This document shows, piece after piece, positions 37,710-62,083 of a DNA stretch of 64,000 nucleotides. This stretch comes from Betaproteobacteria bacterium (GTDB lineage: Bacteria; Pseudomonadota; Gammaproteobacteria; Burkholderiales; Ga0077523): assembly GCA_016713305.1 (NCBI GenBank), contig JADJPK010000007.1:128513-192512 (forward strand), given 5' to 3'. Made by a program: the position numbers and the translations under genes. Each line of letters begins with the position of its first letter. Position 1 is the first letter of the stretch. The notes under the pieces were generated by a model. The model saw nothing but the letters and a program-made list of their open reading frames with translations, ran no database searches and was not told the origin of the DNA.

Positions 37710-37710
37710 C

Positions 37711-38097: not shown

Positions 38098-38128
38098 CGG
38101 CGGCGTCCCTGCGCCCTTGCGTGGCGTA

Positions 38129-38356: not shown

Positions 38357-38366
38357 GGGCGTTCAA

Positions 38367-39185: not shown

Positions 39186-39189
39186 CCGG

Positions 39190-42042: not shown

Positions 42043-42062
42043 GGTGCGTCCTCCTTGGAGGG

Positions 42063-43622: not shown

Positions 43623-44089
43623 GCGACCTCCCGAAGCTGGCTGGCCAGGACGCCGGCGGCGTCCGCGTTCACGCGTCCCCGCAGCCGGCCATCGACCATG
43701 AGCGAAGGCGCCAGGGCGCAGTTGCCGAGGCAGTAGACGGGTTCCAGCGTGACGGCACCGTCCGCGGTGGTCTGGTGGAGATCCACACCCAGCGCCTGGC
43801 GCAGCGATGCGAGCAGGGTATCGGCACCCATCGACTGGCACGCCTCCGCCCGGCAGACCTGGACCACGTGCCGTCCCGGCGGCACCTGGCGGAAGTGGTG
43901 GTAGAACGACACCACGCCATGGACTTCTGCACGGGACAGGTTCAGCGCACTGGCGATGGAAGCGATGGCCTCCGGCGGAACGTGGCCCAGGGCATCCTGG
44001 ATGTCGTGCAGCAGGGGCAGAAGGCCCCCGGGGACGTGCTGATGTCGTTCGATTGCCCGACCTATGACGGCGCTGGCGTCATCCGGCAT
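43619..44089 (-). CDS. fdsG: NAD-dependent formate dehydrogenase gamma subunit FdsG (NuoE-like 2Fe-2S)
   Basis: VCRAEAC...CLGNCALAP Cys pattern, with AGGAGGAAG upstream of the ATG at 44089. Confidence 0.85.
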   Translation of the reverse strand: MPDDASAVIGRAIERHQHVPGGLLPLLHDIQDALGHVPPEAIASIASALNLSRAEVHGVVSFYHHFRQVPPGRHVVQVCRAEACQSMGADTLLASLRQALGVDLHQTTADGAVTLEPVYCLGNCALAPSLMVDGRLRGRVNADAAGVLASQLREVA

Positions 44090-44391: not shown

Positions 44392-45480
44392 ATGAAACGC
44401 ATCGCCGTCAAACCGACCTGGATCCTCGAGGATGAAACCGGCCAGCGCGTGGGGCCGGAGGTTTTCGCCCTGCTCGCCGCCATCAACGGCAGCCGCAAGC
44501 TGACCGAGGCGGCCGAAGCGGTGGGCGTGTCCTATCGCCACGCCTGGGGCCTGGTGGAGACCTGGGGCGAATTCTTCGGCCAGCCGCTCGTGCGCTTCGA
44601 GCGGGGAAAGGGGACGTCGCTGACGCCGCTGGGCGAGAAGATCCTCTGGGCCGAGCAGAGGGCCATTGCCCGCATGGGGCTGCAGCTGGAATCCCTCGCC
44701 TCGGAAATCAATCTCGAGATCAACCAGCTCCTGGACTCGGCCCTGGCGACGGTCCGCATCCATGCGAGCCACGGATTCGCCGTGGCGCGCGTCCCGGCCC
44801 TGCTGCAGGACCATCCCCGCATCCGTCTGGATCTGCGCTATCTGGGAACCCTGGAATCGCTGGCATCGCTTGTCCGGGGAGCGTGCGATCTCGCGGGATT
44901 CCACGTTCCGGTGGGCGAACTGGGTGCCTCCGCCGCGCGTCAGTACCTGCGCTGGCTGCGCCCGGAGGAACACCGCATCGTGCATCTGGTCACGCGCACC
45001 CAGGGACTGTTCCTCGCAGCGGGAAACCCCAGGAATATTCGCGGGCTGGACGACCTGACCCGGCCCAATGTGCAGTTCGTCAACCGGCAGAAGGGGTCTG
45101 GAACGCGGCTGCTGTTCGACCAGCTGCTCGCCGCGGCCGGGATCGAAGGCGACCAGATCCGCGGCTACCGGACGGAGGAGTTCACCCACGCGGCCGTGGC
45201 GGCGTACGTGGGGAGCGGCATCGCCGACGCCGGCTTCGGTGTCCAGCCGGCCGCCCACAACCTGCGCCTGGATTTCGTGCCCATTGCCCGCGAGCACTAC
45301 TTCTTCGCCGTGGCACTCACCACGCTGGAGCGCCCCGAGATCCAGGAATTCCTGTCCCTGCTCAAGGGCGAAACGTTTCAGCAGATGGTCCGGGAGCTGC
45401 CGGGGTACGAAGCGCCCAAGGCAGGCGAGGTGTCCACGCTCGGCGAGGCGTTCCGGGAGGGGAGAAAGGCGAAAAGATAG
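44392..45480 (+). CDS. ModE-type HTH fused to a periplasmic-binding-protein-like (oxyanion-binding type) domain; putative Mo/W-responsive regulator
   Basis: The N-terminus LLAAINGSRKLTEAAEAVGVSYRHAWGLVETWG is paralogous to the two small ModE-like proteins. The C-terminal ~250 aa look like a PBP-type domain (NRQKGSGTR, GIADAGFG). It is transcribed divergently from fdsG. Confidence 0.6.
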   Translation: MKRIAVKPTWILEDETGQRVGPEVFALLAAINGSRKLTEAAEAVGVSYRHAWGLVETWGEFFGQPLVRFERGKGTSLTPLGEKILWAEQRAIARMGLQLESLASEINLEINQLLDSALATVRIHASHGFAVARVPALLQDHPRIRLDLRYLGTLESLASLVRGACDLAGFHVPVGELGASAARQYLRWLRPEEHRIVHLVTRTQGLFLAAGNPRNIRGLDDLTRPNVQFVNRQKGSGTRLLFDQLLAAAGIEGDQIRGYRTEEFTHAAVAAYVGSGIADAGFGVQPAAHNLRLDFVPIAREHYFFAVALTTLERPEIQEFLSLLKGETFQQMVRELPGYEAPKAGEVSTLGEAFREGRKAKR

Positions 45481-45487
45481 GGCAGGA

Positions 45488-45762
45488 TCCGAGAGGCGCG
45501 AAGGCGGCTCTCTCCTTCAGGGGAGGAGCGGAGGTGGGGGTGGGTCTTCCGAGAGGCGCGAAGCGCAAGTACCTCTCCTCCCCTTCAGGCCGGGGCCCCC
45601 GGAAAGTCGGAGGCTTTTCGGGGTGGAGTGGAGGAGCGGAGGTGGGGGTGGGCATTCCGAGAGGCGCGAAGCGCGAAACTCTCCTCCCTTCAGGGGAGGA
45701 GCGGAGGTGGGGGTGGGGTTCCGAGAGGCGCGAAGCGCAAGTACCTCTCCTCCCCTTCTGGC
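45488..45762. repeat. Four tandemly arranged REP-like hairpin repeat units
   Basis: TCCGAGAGGCGCGAAG occurs at 45488, 45548, 45656 and 45720. GGAGGAGCGGAGGTGGGGGTGGG occurs three times. Internal hairpins include GCGC-gaa-GCGC and CTCCTCCC-ttca-GGGAGGAG. Confidence 0.75.
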
Positions 45763-45818: not shown

Positions 45819-45842
45819 CGCTATATAAATCGGGATATGACG
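45819..45842. promoter_or_regulatory. ModE-operator-like Mo-box CGCTATATAAATCGGGATATGACG overlapping the modB start
   Basis: The left half, CGCTATATA, equals the Mo-box half-site consensus as I recall it. It has 24-bp dyad architecture and overlaps the modB ATG at 45837. Confidence 0.6.
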
Positions 45843-46535
45843 TCAATGTGGGAGACAGGGGCGGGGCTTTCGGCCGCCGCGTGGACGCCGCTTGCGCTCT
45901 CGCTCAAGGTCGCCGGCTGGGCCACGGCACTGGTCCTGATCGCGGGCGTGGCGGTGGCCTGGCTGGTCGCGCGAGGGCGGTTCTGGGGCCGCGAGGTGTT
46001 CGATGCGCTCATGACGCTGCCCATGGTCATGCCACCCACGGTCCTGGGCTATTACCTCATCGTCCTGCTGGGGCGCCGGGGCTGGATCGGGCGCTGGCTT
46101 CATGAACAGTTCGACCTGGTCCTGATGTTCACCTGGCAAGGCGCGGTCATCGCCGCCGCCGTCGTCGCGTTCCCGCTGGTCTACAAGGCCGCCCGCGCCG
46201 CTTTCGAGGAAGTCCCCCGTCAGGCCGAGAACGCGGCCCGCGTGTTGGGCGCAACGGAGTGGGACGTCTTCGTCCGGGTGACGCTTCCCCTCGCGTGGCG
46301 GGGCATCCTCGCCGGAACCATGCTGGCGTTCGCCCGGGCACTTGGGGAATTCGGCGCCACCCTCATGGTGGCCGGGAGCATCCCCGGCAAGACCCAGACG
46401 CTGTCCATCGCGGTCTACGAGGCCGTGCAGGCCGGGCAGGACGATCAGGCGAACTTCCTCGTGGCCATCACCTCGCTCGTGTGCATCCTCGTGCTGGTGG
46501 GGTCCGGCCGTCTTCTGCGGGTGCGTACCGCTTGA
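45837..46535 (+). CDS. modB: Molybdate ABC transporter permease ModB
   Basis: Five or six TM helices and a CysTW/ModB-type loop ([41 protein letters not shown]). An alternative ATG exists at 45846. Confidence 0.85.
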
Positions 46536-47301
46536 AGCTGGAAATCTCGATCCGCCGGCAGTTTTCCTCCAACGGCCACCGCTTCGAGCTCGATGCGCAA
46601 GTGAGCTGCGAGCACGACGTCACGGTCATCTTCGGCCCGTCGGGCTCCGGCAAGAGCGTCACGCTGCAGGCCGTTGCCGGCCTGATGCGCCCGGACTCCG
46701 GCTTCATCCACCTGGGTGACCGGGCATTGTTCGACTCGGCCACGGGAGTCGACGTCCCCACGCGCGAACGCCGCGTGGCCTATGTCTTCCAGGACTATGC
46801 GCTGTTTCCCCACCTGAGCGTCGAGCGCAACGTGGCGTTTCCGCTCAGCCGCTGGTGGCAGTGGGGGCTGCCGGCTGGAGTGCGGGACCGCGTCCGCCGC
46901 ATGCTGGACACCTTCGAGATCGGACATCTCGCGCAGGCGTATCCGGGGCAATTGTCCGGGGGCCAGCGGCAACGGGTGGCGCTCGCAAGGGCGCTGGTAG
47001 GCGAACCGGAAATACTGCTTCTGGACGAACCGTTCAGCGCGCTGGACCCGCTGTTGCGCGAACGCATGCGACACGAACTGCTCCGCCTGAGGGAGCGATT
47101 CCACGTTCCCATGGTCGTCATCACCCACGATCCGGACGATGTCGCCGGCCTGGCCGACGAGGTCATCGTCTTCCGTGAAGGCCGCGTCGCCGCGACCGGC
47201 GATGCGCACGAGTTGCTGTCGCACGTGGAATCCGGTCCGCAGGTGCGCCGCGCCATGCGGAGGTTTCTCGCTCAAGCCGTGGAAGTGGAAAAAATATCAG
47301 G
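46532..47301 (+). CDS. modC: Molybdate ABC transporter ATP-binding protein (ModC-like); 3' end uncertain
   Basis: The TTG start overlaps the modB stop. It has Walker [24 protein letters not shown] and [11 protein letters not shown]. As read, the ORF runs on to 47689 through Cys/Arg-rich sequence. An A6 run at 47287-47292 precedes a TGA at 47299-47301 in the -1 frame, which I take as the likelier end. Confidence 0.7.
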
Positions 47302-47367
47302 TGACGTCCCGTGTTGCGGCCACCGCGCGACCGGAAATCCGTCACCTCTGACTACCCGGCATTCTCG

Positions 47368-47397
47368 CAATTCCCGTTCGTGGACGGGAAAATTGCC
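47368..47397 (+). terminator. Stem-loop downstream of modC
   Basis: GCAATTCCCGT-tcgtgg-ACGGGAAAATTGC forms an 11-bp stem with a 2-nt bulge. There is no U-tract. Confidence 0.3.
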
Positions 47398-47532
47398 GGT
47401 GGGGCGCTTGTCAGTCACATCTCCTTGCACCATATTGGCTTCAGATCCGACGCTGTCGAAGCGGTGCTCGCGTGCGTGCGCGTGCGGCTGCCGGGTACGG
47501 AAGCGCCGGACCCACTACAAGGAGAACGTCGA

Positions 47533-50119
47533 ATGCCCAGGGAAGGGATGTGCGTCCTGGACGCCTCCGGGCGTCTGCACGACGCCAACGACTCGCTGGC
47601 CGAACTGTTGCAAGCGGCCCGTGCCGATCTGGTCGGCAAGTGCCTTCTCGACCTTCTTCCGTCCGCCGGCGAACGTGTGCGGGCGATGATGGCGGCCCTG
47701 GGCTCCGGCGCAACCCGGTCCGTCGACGTCACGTTTGGAGGCACGGGCGCCGCGGCGCGTGACGTGCGGGTGACGCTCGCCCGCCTGTCGGGCGATTCGT
47801 TCTGCGCGACGTTCCGGGATCTGCCGATCTCTCCCGCCGACCTGGCCAGCGTGAAGGACTCCGAGGCGAAATTCTCGGCCGCCTTCCAGGGAAGCGTGGA
47901 TCCCATGGTCATCGTGCGGACCGAGGATGGTCTGATCCTCGACGTCAATCTGGCCTTCGAACAGTTGTTCGGCTATACGCGGGAAGACGCCATCGGCCGC
48001 CGCGTGCCCGAACTCGGCTTGTCGGTGGATCCGCATTTCAGGCAGCGGGTTGTGGAGGCACTGCGGTCCGGCGGACGGATGCGCGACGAGCCTTGGACGC
48101 TGCGAACCAAGTCGGGAGAAGTGCGGGAGGCATTGCACAGCGCATTCCTGATCTCGCGCGAAGGCGAGATGCGGCACGTGGCGGTGATCCGCGACGTGAC
48201 CGAACAGCGGGCGCGGGAGCGCGAGTTGCGCGAATCCGAGGCCAAGTTCTCGGCGGCGTTCCACGCAAGCGTCGAGGCCATGGTCATTTCCATGCTCGAC
48301 GACGGCCGCATCGTGGATGTGAACGAAGCGTACGTCCGCCTGACCGGCTATTCCCGCGAGGAGCTCATCGGCAGGACGACCCTGGAGATGGGGATCGTTG
48401 CCGATCCGGAGGGTCGCGCGTCCCGCGCAAACATGATGCGAGCCGAGGGGGCGGTGCGCGACGTGCCGTCACCCACGCGACGGCGCGACGGCGAAATCCG
48501 CGAATGCCTTCAGACGAGCTTCGGCATCGAGATCCGCGGCGAGCCCGGATGGGTGTCGGTACTGCGTGACGTCACGGACATCCGCCGTGCGGAGCGTGCA
48601 TTGCGGCAATCCGAAGCCAGGTTTCACGCAGTATTCCGCGGCAGCCCCGATCCGATCGTGATCAGCCACATGGACGACGGCGTAGTGGTCGATGTCAATC
48701 CCGCGCACGAGGTGCTGACGGGGTATTCGCGCGAGGAGATCGTCGGGCGCAGCGTCATGGACCTGGACATCGTCGATCTGCCGAAGCGCTCCGCGCTCGT
48801 GCAAGAGGTGCGCCGCCATGGCTTCGTCAAGGAATGGGAGTACACCAACAGGCACCGCTCGGGCGAAGTGAGGTTGTGCCTTCAGTCGAGTTTCCGACTG
48901 GATATCGGTGACGACGACTGCATGGTGTCGATCGTGCGCGACGTCACCGAGCTGCGCCGTATCGAGGCCGCGGTCCGGACGAGCGAGGAACGCCTGCGGC
49001 AAGCGGTGCGGGCATCCGCGATCGGCATCTTCGATCACGACCATCGCGCGGACACGATCTACTGGTCGCCGGAACAGCGGGCGATCTACGGATTCACGGC
49101 CGACGAGCCTGTCGATATTCCCCGCTTTCTGTCAAGCGTTCATCCCGCCGACCTCGACCGCATCGGAGCCGACGTGCGCCGGGCCCACGATCCGTCGGGC
49201 GACGGACTCTTCGACGTCGAGAAACGTATCGTCCGGCGCGACGGAGCCATACGGTGGATCGCCACCCGTTCGCAGACCTTCTTCGAGGGGCAGGGAGAGG
49301 CGAGGCGGCCTGTCAGGACCGTGGGCGCGGTGCTCGACGTCACGGAGCGAAAGCATATCGACGAGGAACTGCGACGCCTCAATGAGGAACTGGAAACCCG
49401 TGTGGCAGAGCGCACCGCCGAACTGGAACGCGCCAACCGGGACCTCGGAATCGTTCAGCTACTCCATTTCGCACGATCTGCGTGCGCCGTTGCGGCATGG
49501 TGGGTTACATCGACATGTTCGAACGCGACCTGCCGTGCCGCTGGACGACACGTCCAAGCGCCGTCTGGACGTGATCTCCGATGCCGCGCGCCGGATGGGG
49601 ACCATGATCGACAGTCTGCTGGCCTTCGCCAGGATCGGGCGGGCCGCGATGCAGTTCTCGGCCGTGGACGTGAATGCCGTCGTGGGGGATGTCCGGATGG
49701 AACTCAGGCCGGACACGGACAACCGCCAGATCGAGTGGGAGGTTGCGGAACTCCCGACCATCACGGCGGACCGGACCCTGCTCAAGATGGTGTTCTCCAA
49801 CCTCGTGTCGAATGCCATCAAGTTCACGGCAGAGCGTGCGCCGGCCCGCATCGGCATCGGCGCTCACCGCGCGGATTCCGGGTGGGTCTTCTTCGTGAGC
49901 GACAACGGCGCGGGGTTCGACATGCGCTACGCGGACAAGCTCTTCGGGGTCTTTCAACGGCTGCATAGCGCCGACGAGTTTCCCGGCACCGGCATCGGAC
50001 TCGCGAACTGCCGCCGCATCGTCGAGCGTCACGGCGGACGCATCTGGGCCGAAAGCGAACCCGGCGTAGGAACTCGCATTCTGTTCCTTGTTCCCGATCT
50101 CCCTCAACGAGCAGGCTGA
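47533..50119 (+). pseudogene. Multi-PAS (five PAS) sensor histidine kinase, frame broken in the H-box region
   Basis: AAGGAGAA lies upstream of the ATG at 47533. Five PAS modules are followed by ..ELERANRDL | ESFSYSISHDLRAPLRH | MVGYIDMFERDL | PLDDTSKRRLDVI.. read in frames 1, 2, 0 and 2. The HATPase boxes are VSNAIKFT, DNGAGFD and GTGIGL. The breaks are near 49446-49449, 49494-49499 and 49529-49534. Confidence 0.85.
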
Positions 50120-50121
50120 CC

Positions 50122-50568
50122 ATGCAACCGAAGCGAATCCTTCTGGCCGAAGACGATCCCAACGATCGCGAGCTGACGGTCACGGCGTTGCAGGAGTATC
50201 GGCTTTCCAACGAACTCATTGCAGTGAAGGACGGCGCGGAAGCCCTGGACTATCTTCTGCGGCGCGGTCAATACGCCGGCCTGCCGCCGGGCAATCCGGC
50301 CGTGGCCCTGGTGGACCTGAAGATGCCCCGCATGGGGGGCTTGGAAGTCCTGCGCGAGATCCGGGCGACGCCTTCATTGCGGATGCTTCCCGTCGTCATC
50401 CTCACTTCGTCGAAGGAAGAGGCGGACGTCGCCGACAGCTACGGCCTCGGCGCCAACGCCTATGTCGTGAAGCCCGTCGACTTCCACGACTTCGTCGACG
50501 CCATCAAGACGGCCGGGCTGTTCTGGGCCGTCCTCAACGAGCCGCCGCCCGGAACAGTCGCCCCCTGA
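50122..50568 (+). CDS. Single-domain response regulator (CheY-like receiver)
   Basis: LLAEDDPND, VDLKMP (phospho-acceptor Asp), TSS and KP motifs. It starts 2 nt after the kinase stop. Confidence 0.85.
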   Translation: MQPKRILLAEDDPNDRELTVTALQEYRLSNELIAVKDGAEALDYLLRRGQYAGLPPGNPAVALVDLKMPRMGGLEVLREIRATPSLRMLPVVILTSSKEEADVADSYGLGANAYVVKPVDFHDFVDAIKTAGLFWAVLNEPPPGTVAP

Positions 50569-50575
50569 GCCCGCG

Positions 50576-53229
50576 ATGCAAGCACCAGCACTGCCCCGCT
50601 TGCGGGTCCTGCATCTCGAGGACGATCCCTGGACTGCGACATCGTGCGCGACCGGCTGCGCCAGGAAGGCATCGAATGCGACGTGCAGTGCGTCGCGGGC
50701 AGGAGCGAGTACTCGGCGGCCCTCGAGGCTTTCGCCCCCGATCTGATCCTGTCCGATCACGCGCTGCCCGGGTTCGACGGTGTGTCGGCTCTGCGGATGG
50801 CCAGGTCGCTGCGGCCGGCCGTGCCGTTCATCTTCGTCTCCGGCGCCATTCTCGAGGACGAGGCGATCGAGATGCTCAAGCAGGGGGCCACCGACTACGT
50901 TCTCAAGAACCATCTGGGCCGGCTCTGTCCCGCCGTGCGCCGGGCGTTGCAAGCGGCGCGGGAACAGGACGAACGCCAGCGCGCTCTGCGCCGCGCTGCG
51001 AGACAGCGAGCGGCTGCTGAGGCAGATCATCGATCTGGTCCCGCACTTCATCTTCGCCAAGGATACGCAGGGCCGTTTCCTGCTGGCCAACCAGGCGGTC
51101 GCCGACGCCTACGGGGCGACCGTGACCGAACTGCTGGGCCGGTCGGATGCGGATTTCCGGCGGCCGGAGGCCGAGACCGCGCGCAGTCTCGCGGAGGACC
51201 GCGCGGTCATGGAAGTGGGGTGCGGCAAGTCGGTTGTCGAAGAAACGGTCACCGGCGTGGGCGGACTCGCCCGCATCGTGCAGACGACCCGCATTCCGTT
51301 CGCCGTGCCGGGCAAGGCCGAGCGCGCAGTCCTGGGCGTGTCCAGCGACATCACGGAACTGCGCTTGGCCGCGACCGCGTTCCAGTCGCACGAAGGCATT
51401 TTCATTACCGATGCCGACGGCGTGATCCAACGCGTGAACCGCGCGTTCCTGGACATCACCGGGCTGTCCGCGGATCGGGCGCTGGGCATGCGGGCCACCG
51501 AACTGTTCGTGAACGGAGAGGGGTCCTCTCCGAGCCAGTGGTCCGCTTTCGTGATCAGCGGCAGCACGTACTGGCAGGGAGAGGCCCAGGCGAGACGCGT
51601 CTCCGGCGACGTGTATCCCATCTGGGAAACGATCACCGCCGTCCGGCGCGACGACGGCGCGGTGACGCACTACGTCTGCCATTTCCAGGACATCAGCGAA
51701 CGCAAGCAGATCCAGGAGCGCATCGAGTACCTCGCCTTCCACGATTCGCTTACCCATCTGCCCAACCGCTCGCTGCTCATGGATCGCTTGCAGCAGGCCA
51801 TCGCGCGCAATCGCCGGCGCGGGCTTTCGGGCGCGCTGCTCTATCTGGATCTGGACCACTTCAAGAACATCAACGATTCGCTCGGGCATCCAACCGGCGA
51901 TCTGCTCCTGTGCGACGTCGCCCGCTGCCTTCTCGCCCAGGTGCGGAGCGAGGACACGGTGGCGCGGCTGGGAGGCGACGAGTTCGTGGTGCTCCTGCCT
52001 CAGCTCGAAGGGGCGCGCGACGCGGTCGCACGCGAGGCGCGTGCCATCGCCCAGAAGATCCGCGAGGCGCTGTCCGGGGACTTCATCATCGCCGGCGACC
52101 GGCTTCGGGCCAGTGCGAGCATCGGTGTGATTCTCTTCCCCGAGGGCGAGGAGACTGCCGACGACATCCTGCGTCACGCGGACATCGCGATGTACCAGGC
52201 GAAGGCGGCGGGCCGGAACACGGTGCGATTCTTCTCGCCGGAAATGCAGGCAGCGGTCAGCGAGCGGCTGCTGCTGGAAGGTCAGCTTCGCGATGCGGTC
52301 GTCCGTCAGGAGTTCATCGCCTATTTCCAGCCGCAGATCGAGCTGGCCACCGGCCGGCTGTTCGGAGTGGAAAGCCTGCTGCGCTGGCAGCATCCGGCCC
52401 ACAGTCTGCAGCCCCCGTCGTCGTTCATCCCCCTTCTCGAGGACACCGGCCTCATCCTGCCGGTGGGCCAGTGGCTGCTGCGGCACGTGTGCGAGACGCT
52501 GGGCGCACTGAAGGCCAAGGGTCACCATGTGCGGGCGGCGGTGAACGTGAGCCCGCGCCAGTTCTACCAGGCGGATTTCGCCGACCGTATCCGCGATGTG
52601 CTGGAGGAAACGGGCACGTCCCCGGAGACCCTCGAACTGGAGATCACCGAGAGCGCGGTCATCGACGACATCGACCACACCATCGGCATCATGCGGCGTT
52701 TGAAGGACCAGGGAGTCCGCTTCTCCCTGGACGACTTCGGCACCGGATACTCGTCCCTGAGCTATCTCAAGCGGCTGCCGCTCGACACGCTGAAGATCGA
52801 CCGTGCGTTCGTTCGAGATTGCACGACCGATGCCAACGACGCCGCGATCGTGCGGGCGATCCTCGCCATGGCGTCGAGCCTGGGGCTCGAAGTGGTGGCA
52901 GAGGGTGTGGAGACGGGGCCCCAGCTGGAATTCCTGCGGTCGCTGGGCTGTGCCTCGTACCAGGGGTATCTGTTCAGTCCGCCGGTGCCGCTGGACAGGC
53001 CGGCCGCACTGCTCGACGATCGCGCAGGCTCCGGCCGCCAGAGCAAAGTCCGGATCAACGTGCGCGGCCTCGGCCGGGGCCCGGTTTCCACTTCGCCACC
53101 CGCGCGGCCCTCGCGTGTTCCGGCGGAAGTGCGATCCGTGTGCACGGATTGCACATCTTCCTGCTCATGGCGGCGTGGCCGCTTCCTCCCCCCGATCCGG
53201 TTTGGTCGCAGGCTCCACGCCGGCCATGA
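50576..53229 (+). pseudogene. Receiver-PAS-PAS-GGDEF-EAL c-di-GMP signalling protein, frame broken; 3' end unresolved
   Basis: MQAPALPRLRVLHLEDDP | LDCDIVRDRLRQEG..ILSDHALPGFDG.. | ..LRDSERLLRQIIDLVPHFIFAKD.., then RLGGDEFVV, ESLLRW, DDFGTGYSS, EGVET and QGYLFS. The breaks are near 50627-50630 and 50975-50995. The domain frame has no stop until 53776. The earliest stop in any frame is at 53227-53229. Confidence 0.8.
53129..53154. terminator. Strong hairpin between the convergent GGDEF-EAL and ModE-like genes
   Basis: GTGCGATCCGTG-..-CACGGATTGCAC forms a stem of about 11 bp including one G-T pair. There is no U-tract on either strand. Confidence 0.3.
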
Positions 53230-53578
53230 GCGACGCAAAGGCCTCGACCTCGGCTTCCACCGACTGCAGCGCCTTGCTCTCGAGTTCGCGGAACCGGCCG
53301 AGAATGTCGCGCCCCAGGTCCGTGAGCATGGCGCCGCCGCCGCCATCGCCCCCGACCTTGCAGTCGATGAGCGGCGACGGGAACATCATGTTCAGCTCCT
53401 CCACCAGGTTCCATGCACGGCGGTAAGGCATGTCGATGCGTCGCGCCGCCGCGGTGATGGAGCCGGTGGCGGCGATGGCCTCCAGCAGCGCGGCCTTGCC
53501 AGGGCCGAACGCAAGCGCGTGACGAAAGCTGATCTGGACCGTGCATGGCCGCGGCGTTGCGGGAACTGGAGTTGGCAC
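53165..53578 (-). CDS. ModE N-terminal-domain-only regulator, paralogue 2
   Basis: GPGKAALLEAIAATGSITAAARRIDMPYRRAWNLVEELN..GGDGGGGAMLTDLG aligns along its length with the protein at 37711-38097. The GTG start lies 12 nt after the DUF1111 stop. Confidence 0.6.
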   Translation of the reverse strand: MPTPVPATPRPCTVQISFRHALAFGPGKAALLEAIAATGSITAAARRIDMPYRRAWNLVEELNMMFPSPLIDCKVGGDGGGGAMLTDLGRDILGRFRELESKALQSVEAEVEAFASLMAGVEPATKPDRGEEAATPP

Positions 53579-53590
53579 GGTGACGTGGCA

Positions 53591-54995
53591 TCAGAGGGAT
53601 TCCAGGAAACGCACCAGGGCGCTACGGTCGGTGAGGGGCGCGAGACGGAACGATTCGCGCGCGGGACGCGCCTGACCACCGTGCCAGAGGATCGCCTCCT
53701 GCAGCGTGCGTGCGCGGCCGTCGTGCAAGAAGCCCGCACGAGGGTTCACCACGTGAGCCAGTCCGATGCCCCATAGCGGTGGTGTACGCCAGTCGCCGCC
53801 CGACGCCGCGAAGTCCGGCCGGCCATCCGCGAGATCAGGTCCCAGGTCGTGGAGGAGGAGATCGGAGTAGGGGCGGATGGTCTGTCGGGAAAGCTGCGCG
53901 AAACGGGGGATTGCCGGTCGTCAGTTCCGGTACATGGCATTGGGAACAACCGAAATCGTTGAAAAGGTGCTCGCCGCGAAAGACGTCGGGTACGCGTTCG
54001 CCTCGGCGCGCCGGGACGGGCAGCAGACTCATGTAGACCGTCAGGTCCTCCAGTTGCCTCGCGTCCAGTTCAGGCGTGCCGCCGTGAGGTGCGCGTGCGC
54101 ACTCGACCTGCGGAGCTGCGCAGTTTTCCGTCCGGAACAGGTCGGAGGTGATGCCCATGTCGCCCCAGGCAGCCGCGGCGTTCTGCTGCCGCAGGTGCGG
54201 CTGGTTGGACTTGAGCCCGAACCGGCCCGTCACGAGTTCGCCCTTGCGCACGTCTAGTACCCTGTTGACGCGGCTCGCACCCATGCCGGGCCTTTCGGCG
54301 AGGGCGCGCAAGGTGGTTTCGTCCACGGCCTCCAGCAGCCCCAGCCCGTACACCGGAGGGGCAACGCGGGCAGACATCAGCAATTGCACCTTCGGCGCGC
54401 CGAAACGCAGGTTGTGCAGGGTGAACACCGGGCGGCGTAGTTCCACGGACTCTCCCCCGGCAAGTGTGACGCGCTCGATCGTGTACGTGACGCGGGCCTC
54501 CCCCTCACCCGGTATGCCGGGGATGCCCGACTCGTTGATCTGGTCACCGTAGGCCGGATGAGGATGCGGGGGTTCATCCGGAAGTGCGCCCGGCTGGCTG
54601 ATGCGCATGAGCATGGCGCGCATTTCCTCGTCCGGACCGTCGGGCGCAAAACCACGCCCATTTCTGACGTGACATGCGCCACAGGACATCCGGTTGTAGA
54701 CGGGACCGAGACCGTCCACGGCTGCGTCCTCCGATGGTGCAACGACCCAGACTTGGCGGAACAGACTGCGTCCACGGAGAAAGGAGGCGCGCAGGTCGTC
54801 AGGAAGGCCCTCGGGGGCGAGGGAATAGGCGTCGCGGTGTTCCGCTCGCACGGTGAGCGATCCGCCGGCGCCACGCATCGTCCCCTCAACGGAATCGATA
54901 CCGGACCAGGATGCCGAAACGCAGAACGACAGGCCGAGCAGCGCGGACGTGCAACGGGCTGCAGGGGCTCGGAGGCGTACCGTCCTTCCCGACAA
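53591..54995 (-). pseudogene. Di-haem cytochrome c / DUF1111 family (putative peroxidase or thiol oxidoreductase), frame broken
   Basis: Two CxxCH sites (CGACHV, CSQCHVP). The C-terminus (QTIRPYSDLLLHDLGPDLADGRPDF..WRTPPLWGIG..FLHDGRARTLQEAILWHGG..) lies in another frame, ending at 53591. The break is in the run at 53898-53910. The 5' end (TTG 54995, which gives a signal-like ALLGLSFCVSASW) is tentative. Confidence 0.75.
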
Positions 54996-56307
54996 TGTCG
55001 GCAAGCCGGGTTGCGGCCGCCCGGGTGTGCACGTCGAAGAACCTGTCCCATTCGCGTTCGATCTCGGCTGCCCGGGCAAGCGCACGTGGGTCGCCACGGC
55101 GCCGCTCATCGAACGTGCGGTTCAGGTTGGCGTCCGCTGCCTGTTCGGCATTCAAAGGGAGCGCTTCGAGATGCCGGGTGGCGTCTTCGATCGCCTCCCG
55201 GCCGGCCCTGTCCGGACGGACTGCGTAAGCCTGTTCCGCTCGCCTGAGCTTTCGCAGCGCGTCGCGCAGGATGGGCTGTCGACGCGTGATCATCGCGTCG
55301 AAAAGCGCGGCGACGACGAGGGATCGCGCGATGCCTGTCGCCGGGTCGTAACGCAGCGCCAAGGCGTCGGGCGCGTCGAACGGACTGAGGCCGAAGGCGG
55401 ACGCATCCTGGTAAGACGATGGTCGCACGGATAGCTTGGCCACATCCGCGTCACCCAGGAGCTGCTGACCTTCGGGTGAGAGCAGAAATGCGACGAAGCG
55501 GTGCGCGGCCGCCGGATGCGCCGCATGGGTCAACACGCCGACGTGCGCGAACGAGTACCCGTTCGCCGTGGGACGCGTGAGGACGAACGGGGCTCCATTG
55601 GCGATGGCAGAACGAGCGAAGAAGTCGATGGTGAGGCCAACTGCCGCTTCGCCGCCACGTAGTTCATCGGAGATGAACGCGCCGCTGCCGTCGATCAACC
55701 GGTTGAATGCGGCGATACGCGACAGGAGAGACCAGCCGTCGCGCCATCCGAGGGACTGCAGCACACCGTCGACCAGGGTCGAGGCGAAGCCGACCTTCGA
55801 CGGAATGGGGAACAACACCAGGCCATCGAATCGTTCGTCGGCAAGATCCGACCACTCGCGCGGAATCGGCAGTCCGTGTACGGCCAGCGTGGCAGGAGCG
55901 CTGACGATGCCGAAGCTGGCCATCTCCACGCCCTCATACCGGCCCTGCGGGTCGGAGAACTGAAGCGGGCCGGCACGCCCGGGAAGCTGCGTGCGGTCGA
56001 CATCCAGGACCGCAAGCAGGCCTTCGTCCGAGAGGGCGATGAAGTTCCGATAGGCGGGGGACCAGTAGACATCGATTCGCGCATTCCGGTCACTGCGCAA
56101 CGAGGGAAGCGCGTCGTGAGGCATGCGCCACACGAATTGGATGTCGATGTCCGGATTGGCACGTTCGAACGCAGCTTCGAAACGGCTGAACACCTCCTCT
56201 GGATAGCTTGTGAGGACGACGACGTCCTCGCGTGCGTAAGCGGGAGAAAGAAGCGCGATTGCGAACGCCACAAAGACGTGCAAGACAGGGCAGGACAAGA
56301 GGCGCAT
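54886..56307 (-). CDS. Periplasmic solute-binding protein (Fe3+/FbpA-like PBP fold) with helical C-terminal extension
   Basis: Signal peptide MRLLSCPVLHVFVAFAIALLSPAYA followed by VVVLTSYPEEVF..IDVYWSP..GVLTHAAHPAAAHRFVAFLLSPEGQ. No cognate permease or ATPase is adjacent. The last ~35 codons overlap the next gene and may be spurious. Confidence 0.7.
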   Translation of the reverse strand: MRLLSCPVLHVFVAFAIALLSPAYAREDVVVLTSYPEEVFSRFEAAFERANPDIDIQFVWRMPHDALPSLRSDRNARIDVYWSPAYRNFIALSDEGLLAVLDVDRTQLPGRAGPLQFSDPQGRYEGVEMASFGIVSAPATLAVHGLPIPREWSDLADERFDGLVLFPIPSKVGFASTLVDGVLQSLGWRDGWSLLSRIAAFNRLIDGSGAFISDELRGGEAAVGLTIDFFARSAIANGAPFVLTRPTANGYSFAHVGVLTHAAHPAAAHRFVAFLLSPEGQQLLGDADVAKLSVRPSSYQDASAFGLSPFDAPDALALRYDPATGIARSLVVAALFDAMITRRQPILRDALRKLRRAEQAYAVRPDRAGREAIEDATRHLEALPLNAEQAADANLNRTFDERRRGDPRALARAAEIEREWDRFFDVHTRAAATRLADIVGKDGTPPSPCSPLHVRAARPVVLRFGILVRYRFR

Positions 56308-56389
56308 GAATTACTCCGAAAGCGCCGAAAACCGGCGGGAGATGGACGTGATCCTCCGTGCCATTTCTGCCAGGACAGCGCTTTCTTCT

Positions 56390-56413
56390 CGATATGTTGA
56401 CACAAATATAACG
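56390..56413. promoter_or_regulatory. ModE-operator-like Mo-box CGATATGTTGACACAAATATAACG between the TonB receptor and binding-protein genes
   Basis: It has the same 7-N10-7 dyad as the other three boxes and lies 83 nt upstream of the binding-protein ATG. Confidence 0.5.
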
Positions 56414-56465
56414 AACGCGATCGGGTGTCGAATCGGCACGGAAATATTGCTGCGGGGCCTGGAGC

Positions 56466-58474
56466 TCAGAAGCGATAGGAAGCATTGGCGAAGAGCGAAC
56501 GTCCGGGATTCGGAAAGCCGAAGTCCAACTGGTAGTTCTTGTCCAACAGATTGGTCACGCCCACTTCGGTCGAGACGTTGCGAACCGGTCGCCAGGTCAG
56601 CTTGACATTGAGCACGGCGAAACCGCCGACCTTGACGGTGTTGCTTGCCCAGCGGCCGCTGAACTGCTCGCCGAACGCGGTGACGTCCAGGGACTCGGCG
56701 GGCCGCCAGATCCCGAACAGCGTCAGTTTGGCCTGAGGAATGCCTGTCAGGCGCACGCCAGGATTCCTCTCGTTGCGCAGATGGAGGAATGTCGCGTTAC
56801 CGCCGAGTTCCAGGGATGTACCGACAGTAGAGCGCAAGCCGTCTCCGCGCCGACGATGCGGACCTCCGCCGACGTTCTGCTGCTGACAGAGGTTCGTCGA
56901 CGAGCAGGTGGCTGCGCCGTTCAGATTCACGCTCTGGATCTTGTCTTCGATCTTGTTCTGGAACAGCGCGAACTCCGCCTGTGCCGCGCCCCATGGGCGC
57001 CCCTGGTAGCCGACTTCGAAATTGCGTGCCTGTTCGGCGCGCAGGCTGGGGTTTTCGACATACGTATTGAGCCGCTGCGAATAGCGATCCTTGAGGGTCG
57101 GCAGGCGTGTCTTCTCGGCGAAGGTCGCGTACAGCCTCGCTGTCGGCGACAAGTCGTGGAAAAGACCGAATTGGGGATCGTTCGCTGTCTGCCTGCCGGG
57201 CAGTGAATAGGTCGGACCGGCGCCCGACTTGTAGACCCGGTCTGGATCGAGCGCGTGATGGGAGAATCCGATGGAGAGCGTGGTCCCGTCTCCGACGGAG
57301 ACCGCATCCTCGACAGCGAAGGTGCGAAGCGTGTCCGAGAAGTCTGCCCCGATAGCCGCGTTGGCATCTGTTTCCTCATGCTGGTCGCGCTTGTACTGGG
57401 CAATCAGCCGGACGGTGTTGCCAGGGAAGCGCCGGGATTCGAGCTCGATCGACCCGCCGAACGTGCGGTCCTCATAGATGCTGCGTCCCGTGGAGACACT
57501 GCCCGGACCGCTCGTCCTGAGCACCGAATAGCTTGCGTCCGTGAAGGTGTCGACCTCGTTGTCGAACTTGTCCAGGTACAGACGCAAGCGCAGGGACTCC
57601 CGCTCTCCAAGGCCGGTTCGTGAGATGAAGTAGAGGCTCTCCTTGTCCCAGAATGGCCACTGCCCGAAGCGGGCGGAAGCCGGGTCGGTCGAGGGTGGCT
57701 GTCCCTTCTTGCCGTTCTGCTGGAGATACGTGAGGGCGTACTCGTCGTCTCCCCGTGGGGTGAAGCCCAGTTTCAGCGACACCTTGTCGTCGCGGAAATG
57801 CGAGTTATTCCGCGTATTGCCGTCCTCTGTGGCGGTGGGCTGAAATCCGAAGACATCCGGAATCCGTCTGCGTCACGATACGAGACGCCTGCCTGGACGT
57901 ACCAGCGCTCGTGCCGGCTGCCCACGTTCGCATCGGCCCGATGCGCGTTCCCCTGGCCGATGCCCACGGTAACGTCGCCTTCCAGTTCCCGCGAGGGACG
58001 TCGCGAGATGAGATTGATCGCACCTCCCAGGGTGTTCGGTCCATACGCCACCGAGCTGAATCCCTTGGCCACCTGGATGCCGGAGAGATCCGCAGTTGCA
58101 AAGCGGCCGAAGTCGACATAGCCATCGTAGGGCACGTAGACCGGAATGCCATCTATGAACAGGGGCGTCTGGCGAGGGTCGTACCCCCGCATGTATACGG
58201 TTTGTTCGTTGCGGACATTGCTCGTGACCGCGATGCCAGACAAGAGGTTCAGCGCATCGCTCACCGTGGGCCGGTCGAATCGGCGGATCTCGTCTGCCGT
58301 GACGACGGACGAAACCTGTTCCGAAAGGATCTCGCCGACCTCGGGTCGCTTGGCCGTGACGAGAACCGTTCCGAGATGGAACACCCCGGCATCGGCGGCG
58401 AGTGCCGTGCAGGGGACCGAGAGGGCGAACACCGTGAGACACGACGTACGTGACATGAAATGGCCCTTGGGCAT
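56466..58474 (-). pseudogene. TonB-dependent outer-membrane receptor, frame broken
   Basis: The N-terminal part has a signal peptide (..CLTVFALSVPCTALA) and a plug (VTADEIRRF..YMRGYDPRQTPLFIDGIPV..GGAINLISRRP) in ORF 57773-58798. The barrel in ORF 56466-57782 ends in ..NASYRF. The break is in a C-run (minus strand) at 57836-57841. An alternative start exists at 58456. Confidence 0.85.
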
Positions 58475-58586
58475 GTCGACGGTTTCTCGGCCAGCCGCGT
58501 GTCCTCGATTGGGGCCGCTCTTGCGATACGGCAGGCGGATTTCGGATTCGGCACGACGCGACGCGCGAGTCATGCCGGTAGACAGG

Positions 58587-58610
58587 CCGGCAATTGCGTT
58601 ATAGTGTGCA
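58587..58610. promoter_or_regulatory. ModE-operator-like Mo-box CGTTATAGTGTGCAGAATATAACG upstream of the TonB receptor
   Basis: Perfect 7-bp inverted repeat CGTTATA/TATAACG with a 10-nt spacer, 113 nt upstream of the receptor ATG at 58474. Confidence 0.6.
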
Positions 58611-58721
58611 GAATATAACGATAGGCGGCAACATCCATCTCCATTTTTTGGGTTCGATGGATGCACACGGACGCCAAGATTCGCGAGGACACTGATCGCG
58701 CGCATCTGATAGTTGACATTG

Positions 58722-58745
58722 CGATATGTCCGGAACAACATAACG
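58722..58745. promoter_or_regulatory. ModE-operator-like Mo-box CGATATGTCCGGAACAACATAACG upstream of the porin-modA operon
   Basis: It has the same dyad architecture. It overlaps a possible TTGACA (58713-58718)-N17-CAACAT promoter and lies 100 nt upstream of the porin ORF. Confidence 0.55.
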
Positions 58746-58845
58746 CGGCATCCAGGCGCAGGTTCTTCCGCATCGGACTCGGGTTGACGGTGGGCCAACC
58801 GTCGAAACGCGGAGGACCTCCCGCGCCAAAAGGCGGTGCGGCCCG

Positions 58846-60434
58846 GTGAGGGGGCCGGCTGGGATCGCCCACGCAGCGGCTGCCGATGAACCGGAACCCA
58901 CCCTCAAGCGTGTGCAGCAGCTCGAATCCGTGGTGGAATCGCTGGCGGCGCAGCTGGATGCACTTCGCCTTGAACTACAGAACGCCAGACGTGAACTCGA
59001 AGCCGCCCGTGGGACGGCTACGCCTGCCGAGGCTCCGCCGGCCGGGCATGCCGCGGATCTGCCTCCCACCCGGCGCGAGTTGAATGAAGCGCTCGCCACA
59101 GCACAGGAGGCGAAGGAACAGGCCGCCTCCATCCAGCAACGCTTCGACCAGCAGGGGGTGCAGGCGAGCTTCACGGACGGCCTCACCTTCCAGGACCCGC
59201 GAGGCCGCTGGACGCTCAAGATGATGGGGAGGGCGCAGCTGGATTACCGCCATTTCCTCGGCGCCGAAGAAACGCTCGCCGACACCTTCAGCGTCCGCCG
59301 AGCCCGGCTGGGGGCGCAGGCCACGCTGTTCAAGGACTACCTGGTCCAAGTGGAAGGCGAGTTTTCGGGCAGCTCGGTCACCATGACCAACGGCTTTCTC
59401 GAATTGCAGTGGTTCCCGCGGCGAAGGTCCGCATGGGGCAGTTCAAGCCGCAGTTCGGTCTGGAGCAGACTCTGCTCGACTTGCAGAGCGATTTCCAGGA
59501 GCGATCCCTCACCCAGAACCTGCTCGACGGCAACGGTCTCAACTACGACCGGGGAATCATGGTTCACGGCGCACCGTGGAAGCCTGTCTACTACGCCGTG
59601 ATGGTGTCCAACGGGACGGGCGTGGGGCTGGACGAGCAAGGCCGCAACGCCTCCGAGGCCCGTGCGGACAGCAAGGATGTCACCTTGAGAGGTGTCGTCG
59701 ACTTCGCTCAACTGATCGACGTGCAGGACGCGGTCCTGCACGCAGGGTTGTCCTGGAAGTCAGGCAAGCAGGCCAACAGGCAGACGGCGCAGGCGGACGC
59801 CTTCGCCGCGCCGGCGTTCCGGACCGAGTCTCGCGGACTGACGTTCTTCACGCCGCAGTCTTTCTTCGGCGCGGGCGGCACGACGGGCGAGATCGAACGT
59901 ACGCTCCAGGCGTTCGAGATGTCGACCTCCTGGCGGTCGCTGCGTTTGACCGGAGAGTGGTGGAAGGGGACCTATGCGGGTGCCAGAACCCCCACGGCTG
60001 GAACCCCGGCGGAGTTCTCGCGCGACATTACGGCCAGTTACGTGAGCCTGCTGTGGCTCGCCAGTGGCGAGGTATGGTCCGACTACTACGGTGGCGGCTA
60101 CTGGCAGAAGGTGCGGCCCAACAACCGCTTCTCGTTCGAGCCGGGCGGGGGCTGGGGTGCGTGGGAGCTGGGTCTGCGCTACAGCCAGATGAATGCCTCC
60201 GACTTTCGCGGCACGAACGGCGCGGGTACTGGCCAGGTGTCCGCCACTGCCCCGGTGACTCAGGCGACCACCAAGGCCGACGCCTGGACGGCACAGATCA
60301 AGTGGATCCAGAACAACTACGCGCGCTGGCTGCTGAGCTACGTGCAGACGCGGTTCGATACGCCGGTCCTCGTCAACGGGGTGGCGATAGAGCGCGAGGA
60401 GGCCATCCTCTTCCGCGCACAGGTGGATTTCTGA
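58846..60434 (+). pseudogene. Phosphate-selective porin O/P (OprO/OprP) family anion channel, frame broken; 5' end unresolved
   Basis: Coiled-coil N-terminal region, then FTDGLTFQDPRGRWTLKMMGRAQLDYR..ELQWFP | AAKVRMGQFKPQFGLEQ.. through to ..ILFRAQVDF. The break is at 59416-59422. A signal-peptidase-like AHA-AAADE site is present, but no intact signal peptide or start codon could be found upstream. Confidence 0.75.
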
Positions 60435-60468
60435 TGATTACCAGAACGATGCAAGGCAGGAACCCGAA

Positions 60469-61224
60469 ATGAAGCGATTGAAGAACCTGATGTGTGCCGT
60501 GCTGCTGGGAACGGCTGCCGCAGGGAATGCCATGGCGGCGGACATCACCGTTTCCGCGGCATCGAGTCTGACCAACGCCTTCCAGGAGATCGGACGGCAG
60601 TTCGAGAAGGAACGCCCTCAAGACCGTGTCCTGTTCAACTTCGGATCCTCCGGGCAGTTGGTGCAGCAGATCGTCCGCGGAGCGCCGGTGGATGTGTTCG
60701 CTTCGGCCGACGAGGACTCCATGAACAAGGCGGAGAAGGAAGGGGCGATCGACCGCCCGTCTCGATTCGATTTCGCTCGCAACCTGCTTGTGCTGATCGT
60801 GCCGGTGGATTCGCGACTCACCGTGCGGACACTGCGTGACGTCTCCCAGCCGGCCTTCGGGCGGATCGCCATCGGCAATCCGGACTCGGTCCCAGCCGGG
60901 CGGTACGCCAAGGCGGCCCTGGAAAAGGCGGGCCTCTGGAGCGCGTTGCAGGACCGGCTCGTCAACACCGTGAATGTCAGGCAGGCGCTCGACTACGTGG
61001 CACGCGGCGAGGCCGACGCGGGATTCGTCTATGGCAGCGACGCCAGGCTCATGCCCTCCCGCGTGAGATCCGCGCTGGAAGTGGAGGTGCCGCAGCCGAT
61101 CCTCTATCCGGTGGCTGTCGTGAGGGGCGGCGGCAACAGGAGCGGAGGCGCGGCATTCGTCGCCTATCTCAAGTCAAGGGCCGCACTGGACATCCTGGTC
61201 AAGTACGGATTCCAGACGCCATGA
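60469..61224 (+). CDS. modA: Molybdate ABC transporter substrate-binding protein ModA
   Basis: Signal peptide followed by ITVSAASSLTNAF..FNFGSSGQL..VFASAD..IGNPDSVPAGRYA..VRQALDYVARGEADAGFVY. Confidence 0.9.
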   Translation: MKRLKNLMCAVLLGTAAAGNAMAADITVSAASSLTNAFQEIGRQFEKERPQDRVLFNFGSSGQLVQQIVRGAPVDVFASADEDSMNKAEKEGAIDRPSRFDFARNLLVLIVPVDSRLTVRTLRDVSQPAFGRIAIGNPDSVPAGRYAKAALEKAGLWSALQDRLVNTVNVRQALDYVARGEADAGFVYGSDARLMPSRVRSALEVEVPQPILYPVAVVRGGGNRSGGAAFVAYLKSRAALDILVKYGFQTP

Positions 61225-61361
61225 GCGCAGACGCATGACGCAAGGATCCTGCGGAACGCCCGCTCTCAGCGATAGGGTCGGCGCCATGGCTCGCTCTTGA
61301 CGGTCCGCGTCCGGGTTTTGCTCCACGCCGCTGCTATCATCCACGGCATCGTCGGCGAGGG

Positions 61362-61754
61362 GTGGACGTGACCATAGGCGGGTTCTTTGCGGTGGGGCTG
61401 GGCGCGGCGCTGGGCGCGTGGCTGCGCTGGATTCTCGGCGTCTTCTTCAATCCGCTCTTTCCCACCCTGCCGCTGGGCACGCTCGCTGCCAATCTCGGCG
61501 GCGGATATCTCATCGGGGTGGCGGTGGAGTTCTTCGGAACGCGCGCGGGTCTTCCCCCCGAGTACCGCCTGTTCGCGATCACCGGCTTTCTGGGCGGGCT
61601 GACGACCTTCTCGACCTTCTCGGCCGAGGCCGTCAATCTCTTTTCTCGCGGGCAGCTCGCGTGGGCGGCCGCGCACGTCGGGAGCCACCTGGCGGGATCG
61701 CTCCTCCTGACCATGCTGGGCATCCAGACCGTGCGATCGTTGCAGGGAGCATGA
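61362..61754 (+). CDS. crcB: Fluoride channel CrcB/FluC
   Basis: 130 aa with four TM helices, GTLAANLGGGYLIG and GFLGGLTTFSTF motifs. Confidence 0.9.
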   Translation: MDVTIGGFFAVGLGAALGAWLRWILGVFFNPLFPTLPLGTLAANLGGGYLIGVAVEFFGTRAGLPPEYRLFAITGFLGGLTTFSTFSAEAVNLFSRGQLAWAAAHVGSHLAGSLLLTMLGIQTVRSLQGA

Positions 61755-62083
61755 CCATGACCGGCACCGTGATCCTTCAGCTCTATTTCGCCGAGAACGA
61801 CCGCCACCGCGGCGAACTCGCGTACGAATGGGTGCTCGAACGCAGCAAGGCGCTCGGAATTCCAGGCGGCACCGCGCTGAGAGGAATCGCGGGTTACGGC
61901 AGGCACGGGGTGCTGGAACAGGAGGGCTTCTTCGAGCTGGCTGCCAATCTGCCGATCGTGCTTCAGTTCGTGTGCGCGGCCGCCAAGGCGCAGGAACTCC
62001 TGCAGCTGCTCGCGGCCGAGAGGCTGGCGGTCTTTCATACCCAGGCGGCGGTCGAAGCCGGATGGACCGTACCGCCTCAATGA
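61751..62083 (+). CDS. DUF190 domain protein
   Basis: LQLYFAENDRHRGELAYEWVLERSKALGIPGGTALRGIAGYG is a typical crcB partner sequence. It overlaps crcB by 4 nt. Confidence 0.75.
   Translation: MTMTGTVILQLYFAENDRHRGELAYEWVLERSKALGIPGGTALRGIAGYGRHGVLEQEGFFELAANLPIVLQFVCAAAKAQELLQLLAAERLAVFHTQAAVEAGWTVPPQ

Follow-up and report, generated by a model that had tools for sequence, protein, structure and literature searches.

A clade of OprP-like porins encoded with modA downstream of Mo-boxes: probable outer-membrane channels for molybdate and tungstate

In a stretch of 64,000 nucleotides from a Betaproteobacteria bacterium (contig JADJPK010000007.1; the whole stretch is referred to below as the window), a gene of the Porin_O_P family (58846-60434, plus strand) precedes modA, which encodes the periplasmic molybdate-binding protein (60469-61224, plus strand). 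The initial annotation had proposed that this porin serves as a dedicated molybdate or tungstate channel in the outer membrane. Comparative genomics supports the proposal, through synteny with modA or tupA and through upstream Mo-boxes. We found that the clade to which the porin belongs shares Porin_O_P membership, a predicted OprP-type fold, adjacency to modA or tupA, and conserved Mo-boxes ahead of the porin gene. Thus, the clade probably represents a dedicated outer-membrane channel for molybdate and tungstate, that is, an anion porin of the OprP type under common regulation with modA, and we infer that the porin is selective for these two oxyanions.

The initial annotation had called for a survey of how often such porins adjoin modA in other genomes. 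A degenerate-pattern scan with one genome per species yielded 80 loci with homologs that were 32-73% identical; 7 of them end at a contig edge, which left 73 assessable, and neighboring genes were called by tblastn with the Mod proteins of the window. The hosts are mostly metagenome-assembled genomes (MAGs) of Burkholderiales and Rhodocyclaceae together with Methylophilaceae, the latter including the cultured Methylovorus mays, M. menthalis, Pseudomethylobacillus aquaticus, and Methylobacillus sp. MM3. In 56 of the 73 assessable loci, modA lies directly downstream of the porin on the same strand, at an approximate distance from porin stop to modA start of ~27 nt (median; range about -8 to 76 nt, and one of 234 nt). 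Six more loci, that of Methylobacillus sp. MM3 among them, carry tupA (NF041772, 230-250 bits) downstream of the porin, followed by TupB/C-like genes, so that the porin is paired with a gene for a group-6 oxyanion-binding protein in 62 of the 73. The order of the genes differs between the two main host groups: Burkholderiales MAGs usually show a ModE-N-like helix-turn-helix (HTH) gene, modB, modC, porin, and modA, while Methylophilaceae usually show the HTH gene, porin, modA, modB, and modC. The mod genes of the window are 65-88% identical to those flanking the homologous porins.

Mo-box-like sites were concentrated in front of the porin genes. With up to two mismatches to the pattern CGTTATA-N10-TATAACG, the 80 loci (1.29 Mb) contained 101 sites, 49 of which lie in the 600 nt that precede the porin match, as compared to 3.7 expected under an even spread. 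This corresponds to a 13-fold enrichment, with sites in 47 of the 80 loci; the box usually precedes the predicted ATG of the porin by 35-130 nt. Nearly all of the remaining sites are located just upstream of modB or of a ModE-like gene. Where a close match was missing, palindromic variants occurred, such as CGCTAT-N12-ATAGCG in Methylovorus and Pseudomethylobacillus. None of the 56 modA-linked loci has a Mo-box within the final 300 nt of the porin gene or in the gap between porin and modA. Therefore, any molybdenum control of modA in these genomes must act via the porin promoter. Because the spacers are short and the Mo-box is found ahead of the porin but not before modA, the two genes are probably co-transcribed, and they may be repressed in a molybdenum-dependent manner. 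Co-transcription had been put forward in the initial annotation, and the median gap, the lack of Mo-boxes before modA, and the upstream Mo-box in most loci support it indirectly.

The predicted structure places the porin next to OprP and OprO. The only barrels matched by the clade profile were OprO (4rjw, E=1e-13) and OprP (2o4v, E=3.7e-13). An AlphaFold model based on 115 sequences, with a mean predicted local distance difference test (pLDDT) score of 87.4, showed a β-barrel preceded by two long N-terminal helices (residues 33-72 and 92-119), which form a coiled-coil segment with pLDDT values of 82-91. Its top matches in the PDB were OprP 2o4v (template modeling [TM] score 0.75, E=6e-19) together with 4rjw and 4rjx (TM 0.70-0.75, E about 6e-19), and these outranked general OmpF-type porins. 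Thus, the model predicts an OprP-like 16-strand β-barrel. The two-helix coiled coil is absent from OprP and OprO and could hint at a mainly structural role or one in docking, such as that of a trimeric stalk reaching the peptidoglycan and positioning ModA, rather than at a permeation pathway. We regard this as highly improbable: conservation within the protein is highest in the 16-strand barrel, which has conserved basic and polar residues, and many homologs have shorter N termini.

The comparison with the channel-lining arginines and lysines of OprP and OprO, also suggested in the initial annotation, gave a mixed outcome. Residue equivalences follow HMMER and MAFFT alignments, which agree at the key positions, and are numbered according to P0001, an intact homolog of 545 residues. 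R34, R59, and R60 of OprP correspond to R145, R167, and R168, which are conserved in 77-80 of 79-80 loci, while R133 corresponds to R236, an arginine in 57-58 loci and a leucine in 21. The position of Y62 in OprP (F62 in OprO) is occupied by an invariant arginine, R170, and that of Y114 (D114 in OprO) by an invariant lysine, K217. In contrast to the ladder arginines, D94 is replaced by T197 (threonine in 69 of 79 loci), and K121, S124, S125, and K126 are not kept: K121 is glutamine, asparagine, or arginine, and the other three positions are variable. We considered R170 and K217 as markers of molybdenum specificity and rejected them because relatives outside the clade with a phosphate context have both.

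The two central phosphate sites of OprP are built from D94, Y62, S124, S125, K121, K126, R34, and R133 (PMC5877670, citing Moraes et al. 2007). Public annotation would make the proteins of the clade phosphate- or polyphosphate-selective porins whose adjacency to modA is incidental. They do belong to Porin_O_P, their homologs are named "phosphate-selective porin OprO/OprP" in the source records, and they conserve R34, R59, R60, and R133 of the ladder and central site. Yet of the eight residues listed for the central phosphate sites, five are replaced (D94, K121, S124, S125, and K126; PMC5877670), and the central residues characteristic of the phosphate subgroup (D94, Y62, S124, S125, K121, and K126) are not conserved in the clade. 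Nor did we find a link to the Pho regulon in the form of pst genes or a Pho box; the porins adjoin modA or tupA and have Mo-boxes upstream. No pst or pho gene was seen in the examined flanks of the clade loci, and the 11 loci with neither modA nor tupA have no pst gene among their neighbors. A consistent linkage to pst/pho genes had been named beforehand as the observation that would speak against a molybdate channel; a phosphate context was instead encountered for a relative outside the clade. This protein, P0179 (31% identical), adjoins PhoX and exopolyphosphatase (Ppx) and keeps both the acidic residue at the D94 position and the two serines. The genomic context outside the clade comes from P0179 alone, the contigs of P0147, P0173, P0190, and P0220 being too short to inform. 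Altogether, a phosphate porin is a very unlikely explanation of the clade.

The features that mark the clade are the change of D94 to threonine, E186, W138, and R252. The acidic residue at the D94 position is kept in the outside relatives P0173, P0179, and P0190, and the two OprP serines are kept in four of the five outgroups. Receptors for phosphate provide an acidic acceptor for the phosphate proton, while sulfate and molybdate receptors provide donors only. The loss of D94 would therefore fit a shift toward fully ionized tetrahedral oxyanions. An exhaustive phmmer search of 1.84 billion representatives retrieved no more than 73 clusters at E<=1e-30, or 504 at E<=1e-10, and a neighbor-joining tree rooted on OprO grouped all ModA- and TupA-linked porins in one clade, with the loci lacking such a neighbor scattered within it. 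Among the Methylophilaceae, ModA-linked and TupA-linked porins interleave in the tree, which suggests that the porin makes no distinction between molybdenum and tungsten.

The chief competing explanation is a ModE-controlled but unselective small-anion porin, which would raise the permeability of the outer membrane when molybdenum is scarce without having a specific site for molybdate or tungstate. The evidence from genomic context and regulation fits such a porin equally, and no residue pattern unique to molybdenum or tungsten binding can be demonstrated, R170 and K217 being common to phosphate-context relatives. However, the near-invariant residues in the predicted lumen region (E186, T197, R252, and W138) are absent from the outside relatives, and the narrow, basic OprP-type architecture usually gives saturable, substrate-specific conductance. 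We therefore consider an unselective porin unlikely, and a dedicated molybdate/tungstate channel remains the favored reading.

A dedicated channel of this kind could work as follows. A mostly betaproteobacterial porin clade would have been recruited into the molybdenum regulon, and its members would form trimeric OprP-like 16-strand anion channels with a periplasmic N-terminal coiled coil. When molybdate becomes scarce, a ModE-type repressor would leave the Mo-box; candidates for this repressor are a protein consisting of the ModE N-terminal domain only and/or a fusion of an HTH to a PBP_like domain. The porin and modA would then be transcribed as a single unit. The basic lumen of the porin would speed the diffusion of MoO4(2-) and WO4(2-), both fully ionized tetrahedral oxyanions, into the periplasm, where ModA would capture them and deliver them to ModBC.

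In the window, the porin, modA 34 nt downstream of it, and a Mo-box ahead of the pair are all located where the initial annotation had placed them. The porin gene is covered by two plus-strand open reading frames (ORFs) in different frames, 58846-59601 and 59409-60434. The N-terminal part (58861-59415, within the ORF starting at 58846) encodes the end of a signal peptide (GIAHA, followed by AAADE), the two-helix coiled coil of ~95 residues, and the first barrel strands, while the C-terminal part (59415-60434, with the stop codon at 60432-60434) carries the Pfam Porin_O_P match (PF07396; 35.2 bits against a cut-off of 20.9, for 59409-60434). Joined at 59415, the two frames give a protein of 529 residues. 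PF07396 is also precomputed for P0001 and for all 120 homologs listed, while no NCBIfam model matched the porin. The 34-nt spacer (60435-60468, plus strand) contains no Mo-box and no convincing terminator. The modA gene is intact, with a normal signal peptide (TIGR01256, 220 bits against a cut-off of 62.5), and tblastn detected no further copy of modA in the window. ORFs on the minus strand that overlap these two genes were dismissed as shadow frames of high-GC DNA. Downstream of modA follow crcB, of the fluoride channel family (61362-61754), and a DUF190 gene (the two spanning 61362-62083), which are apparently unrelated to the mod genes.

Five matches to the Mo-box pattern were present in the window at up to three mismatches, as compared to 0.12 expected from shuffles. 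The only perfect palindrome, CGTTATAgtgtgcagaaTATAACG, lies at 58597-58620 in the divergent intergenic region between the porin and a gene for a TonB-dependent receptor. In L001, a contig almost identical to this part of the window, the same box precedes the porin ATG by 298 nt and the ATG of the divergent receptor by 142 nt, and it may be shared by the two promoters. The porin promoter region thus contains a ModE-type operator (inverted repeat CGnTATAT-N-ATATAnCG). A weaker Mo-box-like site with three mismatches (58722-58745) would be ~174 nt upstream of the porin ATG, were this ATG present. Two further boxes have two mismatches each, one ending four bases ahead of the modB ATG at 45846 (45819-45842) and the other between the TonB-receptor gene and the binding-protein gene that follows it (56390-56413), and the fifth (44046-44069) has three. 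Rfam gave no match anywhere in the window, and hence no molybdenum cofactor or other riboswitch upstream.

Two genes in the window could encode the regulator acting on these boxes. One (44392-45480, plus strand) fuses a ModE-type N-terminal HTH to a PBP_like oxyanion-binding domain (PF12727); the other (53168-53545, minus strand; 126 residues in L001) consists of the ModE N-terminal domain only, and its homologs flank most porin-mod loci. The TIGR00637 model of the ModE N-terminal domain matched the 126-residue protein with 78.9 bits (E=2e-22), which is below the cut-off of 98.5, and also matched the fusion regulator. Both regulators lack Mop domains, and a full-length ModE containing them was not encountered in the window. 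How a regulator with this domain only would sense molybdate is a puzzle that has likewise been noted for Desulfovibrio (PMC545781).

All components of ModABC are encoded in the window. The ATP-binding cassette (ABC) permease gene modB (45846-46535, plus strand; BPD_transp_1 match) and the ABC ATPase gene modC (46532-47689, plus strand; ABC_tran match) lie apart from the porin-modA pair. The latter coordinates are those of the ORF, and the 3' end may carry errors. The initial annotation was right that modBC stands behind its own Mo-box with no modA beside it, while the distance to the porin is ~11 kb rather than ~12 kb. The close relatives L003, L044, and L045 have an unbroken order of regulator, modB, modC, porin, and modA. 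Thus, the separation of modBC from the porin in the window represents a lineage-specific insertion of ~11 kb, and the inserted block carries a PAS kinase, response regulators, and the operon of the TonB-dependent receptor.

This operon, divergent from the porin (53168-58474, minus strand), starts with the TonB-dependent receptor gene (56466-58474, minus strand), which stands under the same intergenic Mo-box and is frame-broken near 57780. The receptor gene is followed by the Mo-box at 56390-56413, a gene for a 446-residue SBP_bac_6/11 solute-binding protein, a gene for a DHOR di-heme oxidoreductase, and the gene for the regulator with the ModE N-terminal domain only. The module of receptor, binding protein, and oxidoreductase also follows HTH-porin-modABC in two Methylophilaceae MAGs (L070, 15316-20650; L082, 14065-18962); in L070, Mo-box-like sites immediately precede the receptor. 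In addition, homologs of the binding protein and the oxidoreductase occur near mod genes in L012, L013, L022, and L029. The module may constitute a TonB-dependent route for molybdenum or a molybdenum chelate.

Part of the porin gene is missing or out of frame in the window. The intact homolog P0001, whose N terminus reads MNQRRWTGAKHLAGPLAVSLLGIAHA followed by AAADE, is encoded on L001 and L002, activated-sludge metagenome contigs from different projects with 97-98% and 93% DNA identity to the window, respectively. In the best local alignment, P0001 and the reconstructed window porin gave 100% identity over 100% coverage, with a single V/I difference near the C terminus. A frame break had initially been noted near 59416-59422, and we located it to a C-run on the plus strand (59413-59418) that reads CCC in the window and CCCC in L001, corresponding to a 1-nt deletion at 59415. 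The suspicion of further errors at the 5' end was also justified, in that the signal peptide is absent; the cause, however, is a single deletion of ~98 nt relative to both L001 and L002 (junction 58858-58861, plus strand) rather than scattered errors. The missing sequence comprises a 35-nt leader with the ribosome-binding site and codons 1-21, MNQRRWTGAKHLAGPLAVSLL, so that the window gene lacks its ATG and the signal-peptide codons 1-21. As written, this copy cannot yield an exported protein.

These defects have counterparts in the surrounding DNA. Over the 11.6 kb shared with L001 (window 48900-60494), the window differs by ~29 small indels, several of them in homopolymers. Several of the indels disrupt genes that are intact in L001, among them those for the PAS histidine kinase, a GGDEF/EAL protein, and the TonB-dependent receptor. 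Because near-identical contigs hold intact, identical proteins and neighboring genes are broken in the same way, sequencing or assembly error is the most likely cause, and we are fairly confident that the damage reflects an error-rich assembly. The gene might instead be a genuine pseudogene, the channel having been lost after the 11-kb insertion split the mod cluster and the Mo-box-controlled TonB-dependent receptor having replaced the porin. Both the 5' deletion and the frameshift are there to be explained, a 98-nt deletion is atypical of base-calling error, and the receptor under the same Mo-box adjoins the porin. Nevertheless, we hold true gene loss to be possible but doubtful: the receptor itself is frame-broken along with the kinase and the GGDEF/EAL gene, and the indel pattern resembles sequence error more than selective decay. 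The remaining porin codons also match P0001 apart from the one V/I difference, and the gene is intact in two independent samples.

Several observations weigh against assigning the porin to a dedicated molybdate/tungstate channel. The residues at the positions of the OprP/OprO selectivity pair Y62/Y114, R170 and K217, also occur outside the clade, in relatives with a phosphate context, and 11 of the 73 assessable homologs have no adjoining gene for a molybdenum- or tungsten-binding protein. The window copy is non-functional as its sequence stands. In the window, the perfect Mo-box lies closer to the divergent gene for the TonB-dependent receptor, whereas the box nearer to the porin is a weak one with three mismatches. 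A scan of 58300-61500 detected no sigma-70 consensus promoter, and a weak terminator-like hairpin (60412-60427) overlaps the 3' end of the porin; such hairpins are not above chance in this interval (4 found against 1.6 expected).

A more far-reaching version of the favored reading can be formulated. According to this version, the clade is an unrecognized class of channels specific for molybdenum and tungsten, in which the coiled-coil stalk recruits ModA or TupA for direct handover of the substrate, the change of D94 to threonine acts as a switch, and the TonB module provides a second route. We regard this combination as rather improbable. If it held, the loss of D94 would represent the switch from protonated phosphate to fully ionized MoO4(2-) and WO4(2-), and the porin together with the module of TonB receptor, binding protein, and di-heme protein would constitute two regulated outer-membrane routes for molybdenum.

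Some features near the porin-mod genes stand apart from these questions. A molybdoenzyme cluster (37657-43841) lies just upstream of the mod regulator and contains a second ModE-N-like HTH gene (37657-38097, plus strand), FdhD (38367-39185, minus strand), the alpha subunit of an NAD-type formate dehydrogenase with Mo-bisPGD domains (39412 onward, minus strand), and a Complex1_51K subunit (42063-43841, minus strand). The stretch from the HTH-PBP_like regulator to the modB Mo-box (45480-45760) carries tandem-like repeats of ~120 bp, with a unit of the form ...ccgagaggcgcgaagcg...ctctcctcc...ggaggagcggaggtgggggtggg. In one small sub-branch of the clade, the porin is followed by a gene for a large sCache-HAMP-GAF-PAS-GGDEF-EAL protein (L051, 11320-15209; L052, 11427-15337; L056, 12282-15248). 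A phosphonate/selenate-type binding protein is encoded between the porin and the signaling gene in L051 and L052, which hints at an association with another anion.

The closest known counterparts of the porin are OprP (phosphate) and OprO (pyrophosphate) of Pseudomonas aeruginosa (2o4v/4rjw). They share with it the family PF07396, the predicted barrel fold (TM 0.75), the arginines R34/R59/R60, and, in about three quarters of the loci, R133, as well as the logic of coupling, within a nutrient-starvation regulon, a specific anion porin to an ABC importer's periplasmic binding protein. The window porin differs from both in that identity is only ~18-19%, a ModE/Mo-box replaces the Pho box, modA or tupA takes the place of pstS, a coiled coil of ~95 residues is added at the N terminus, and threonine, arginine, and lysine occupy the positions of D94, Y62/F62, and Y114/D114. 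Another member of Porin_O_P, ExtI of Geobacter sulfurreducens, has been implicated in selenite and tellurite reduction (PMC5877670). It likewise bears the annotation "phosphate-selective porin," yet it can serve other oxyanions and shows no phosphate response (PMC5877670). ExtI is unlike the window porin in that it is encoded in a cytochrome cluster rather than a mod operon, lacks most of the basic residues, and has no Mo-box.

According to a recent review, general porins are believed to admit molybdate by diffusion, after which it is taken up by ModABC (PMC8264917). The system described here has the same importer and ModE-type control, but the outer-membrane step would fall to a dedicated porin whose gene is co-located and apparently co-regulated with modA. 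Another specialized outer-membrane step for molybdate has been proposed, consisting of a secreted binding protein and its receptor, a mechanism unrelated to a diffusion channel. We found no description of a molybdate or tungstate porin in the literature searched, from which subscription-only papers were excluded, so that an earlier description is possible.

If the favored reading is correct, it would fill in the outer-membrane step of molybdate and tungstate uptake for dozens of betaproteobacterial species, including cultured methylotrophs, whose direct accessibility to experiments raises the value of the claim. Group-6 oxyanions would then join the substrates of the OprP family, and a systematic annotation of these proteins as phosphate-selective porins would be corrected. 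The clade would also offer a tractable system for the discrimination of tetrahedral oxyanions by a narrow basic channel, with T197 versus D94 as the candidate determinant. Such a channel would be relevant to processes limited by molybdenum or tungsten, such as denitrification, formate oxidation, and methylotrophy, in the microbial communities of wastewater and freshwater.

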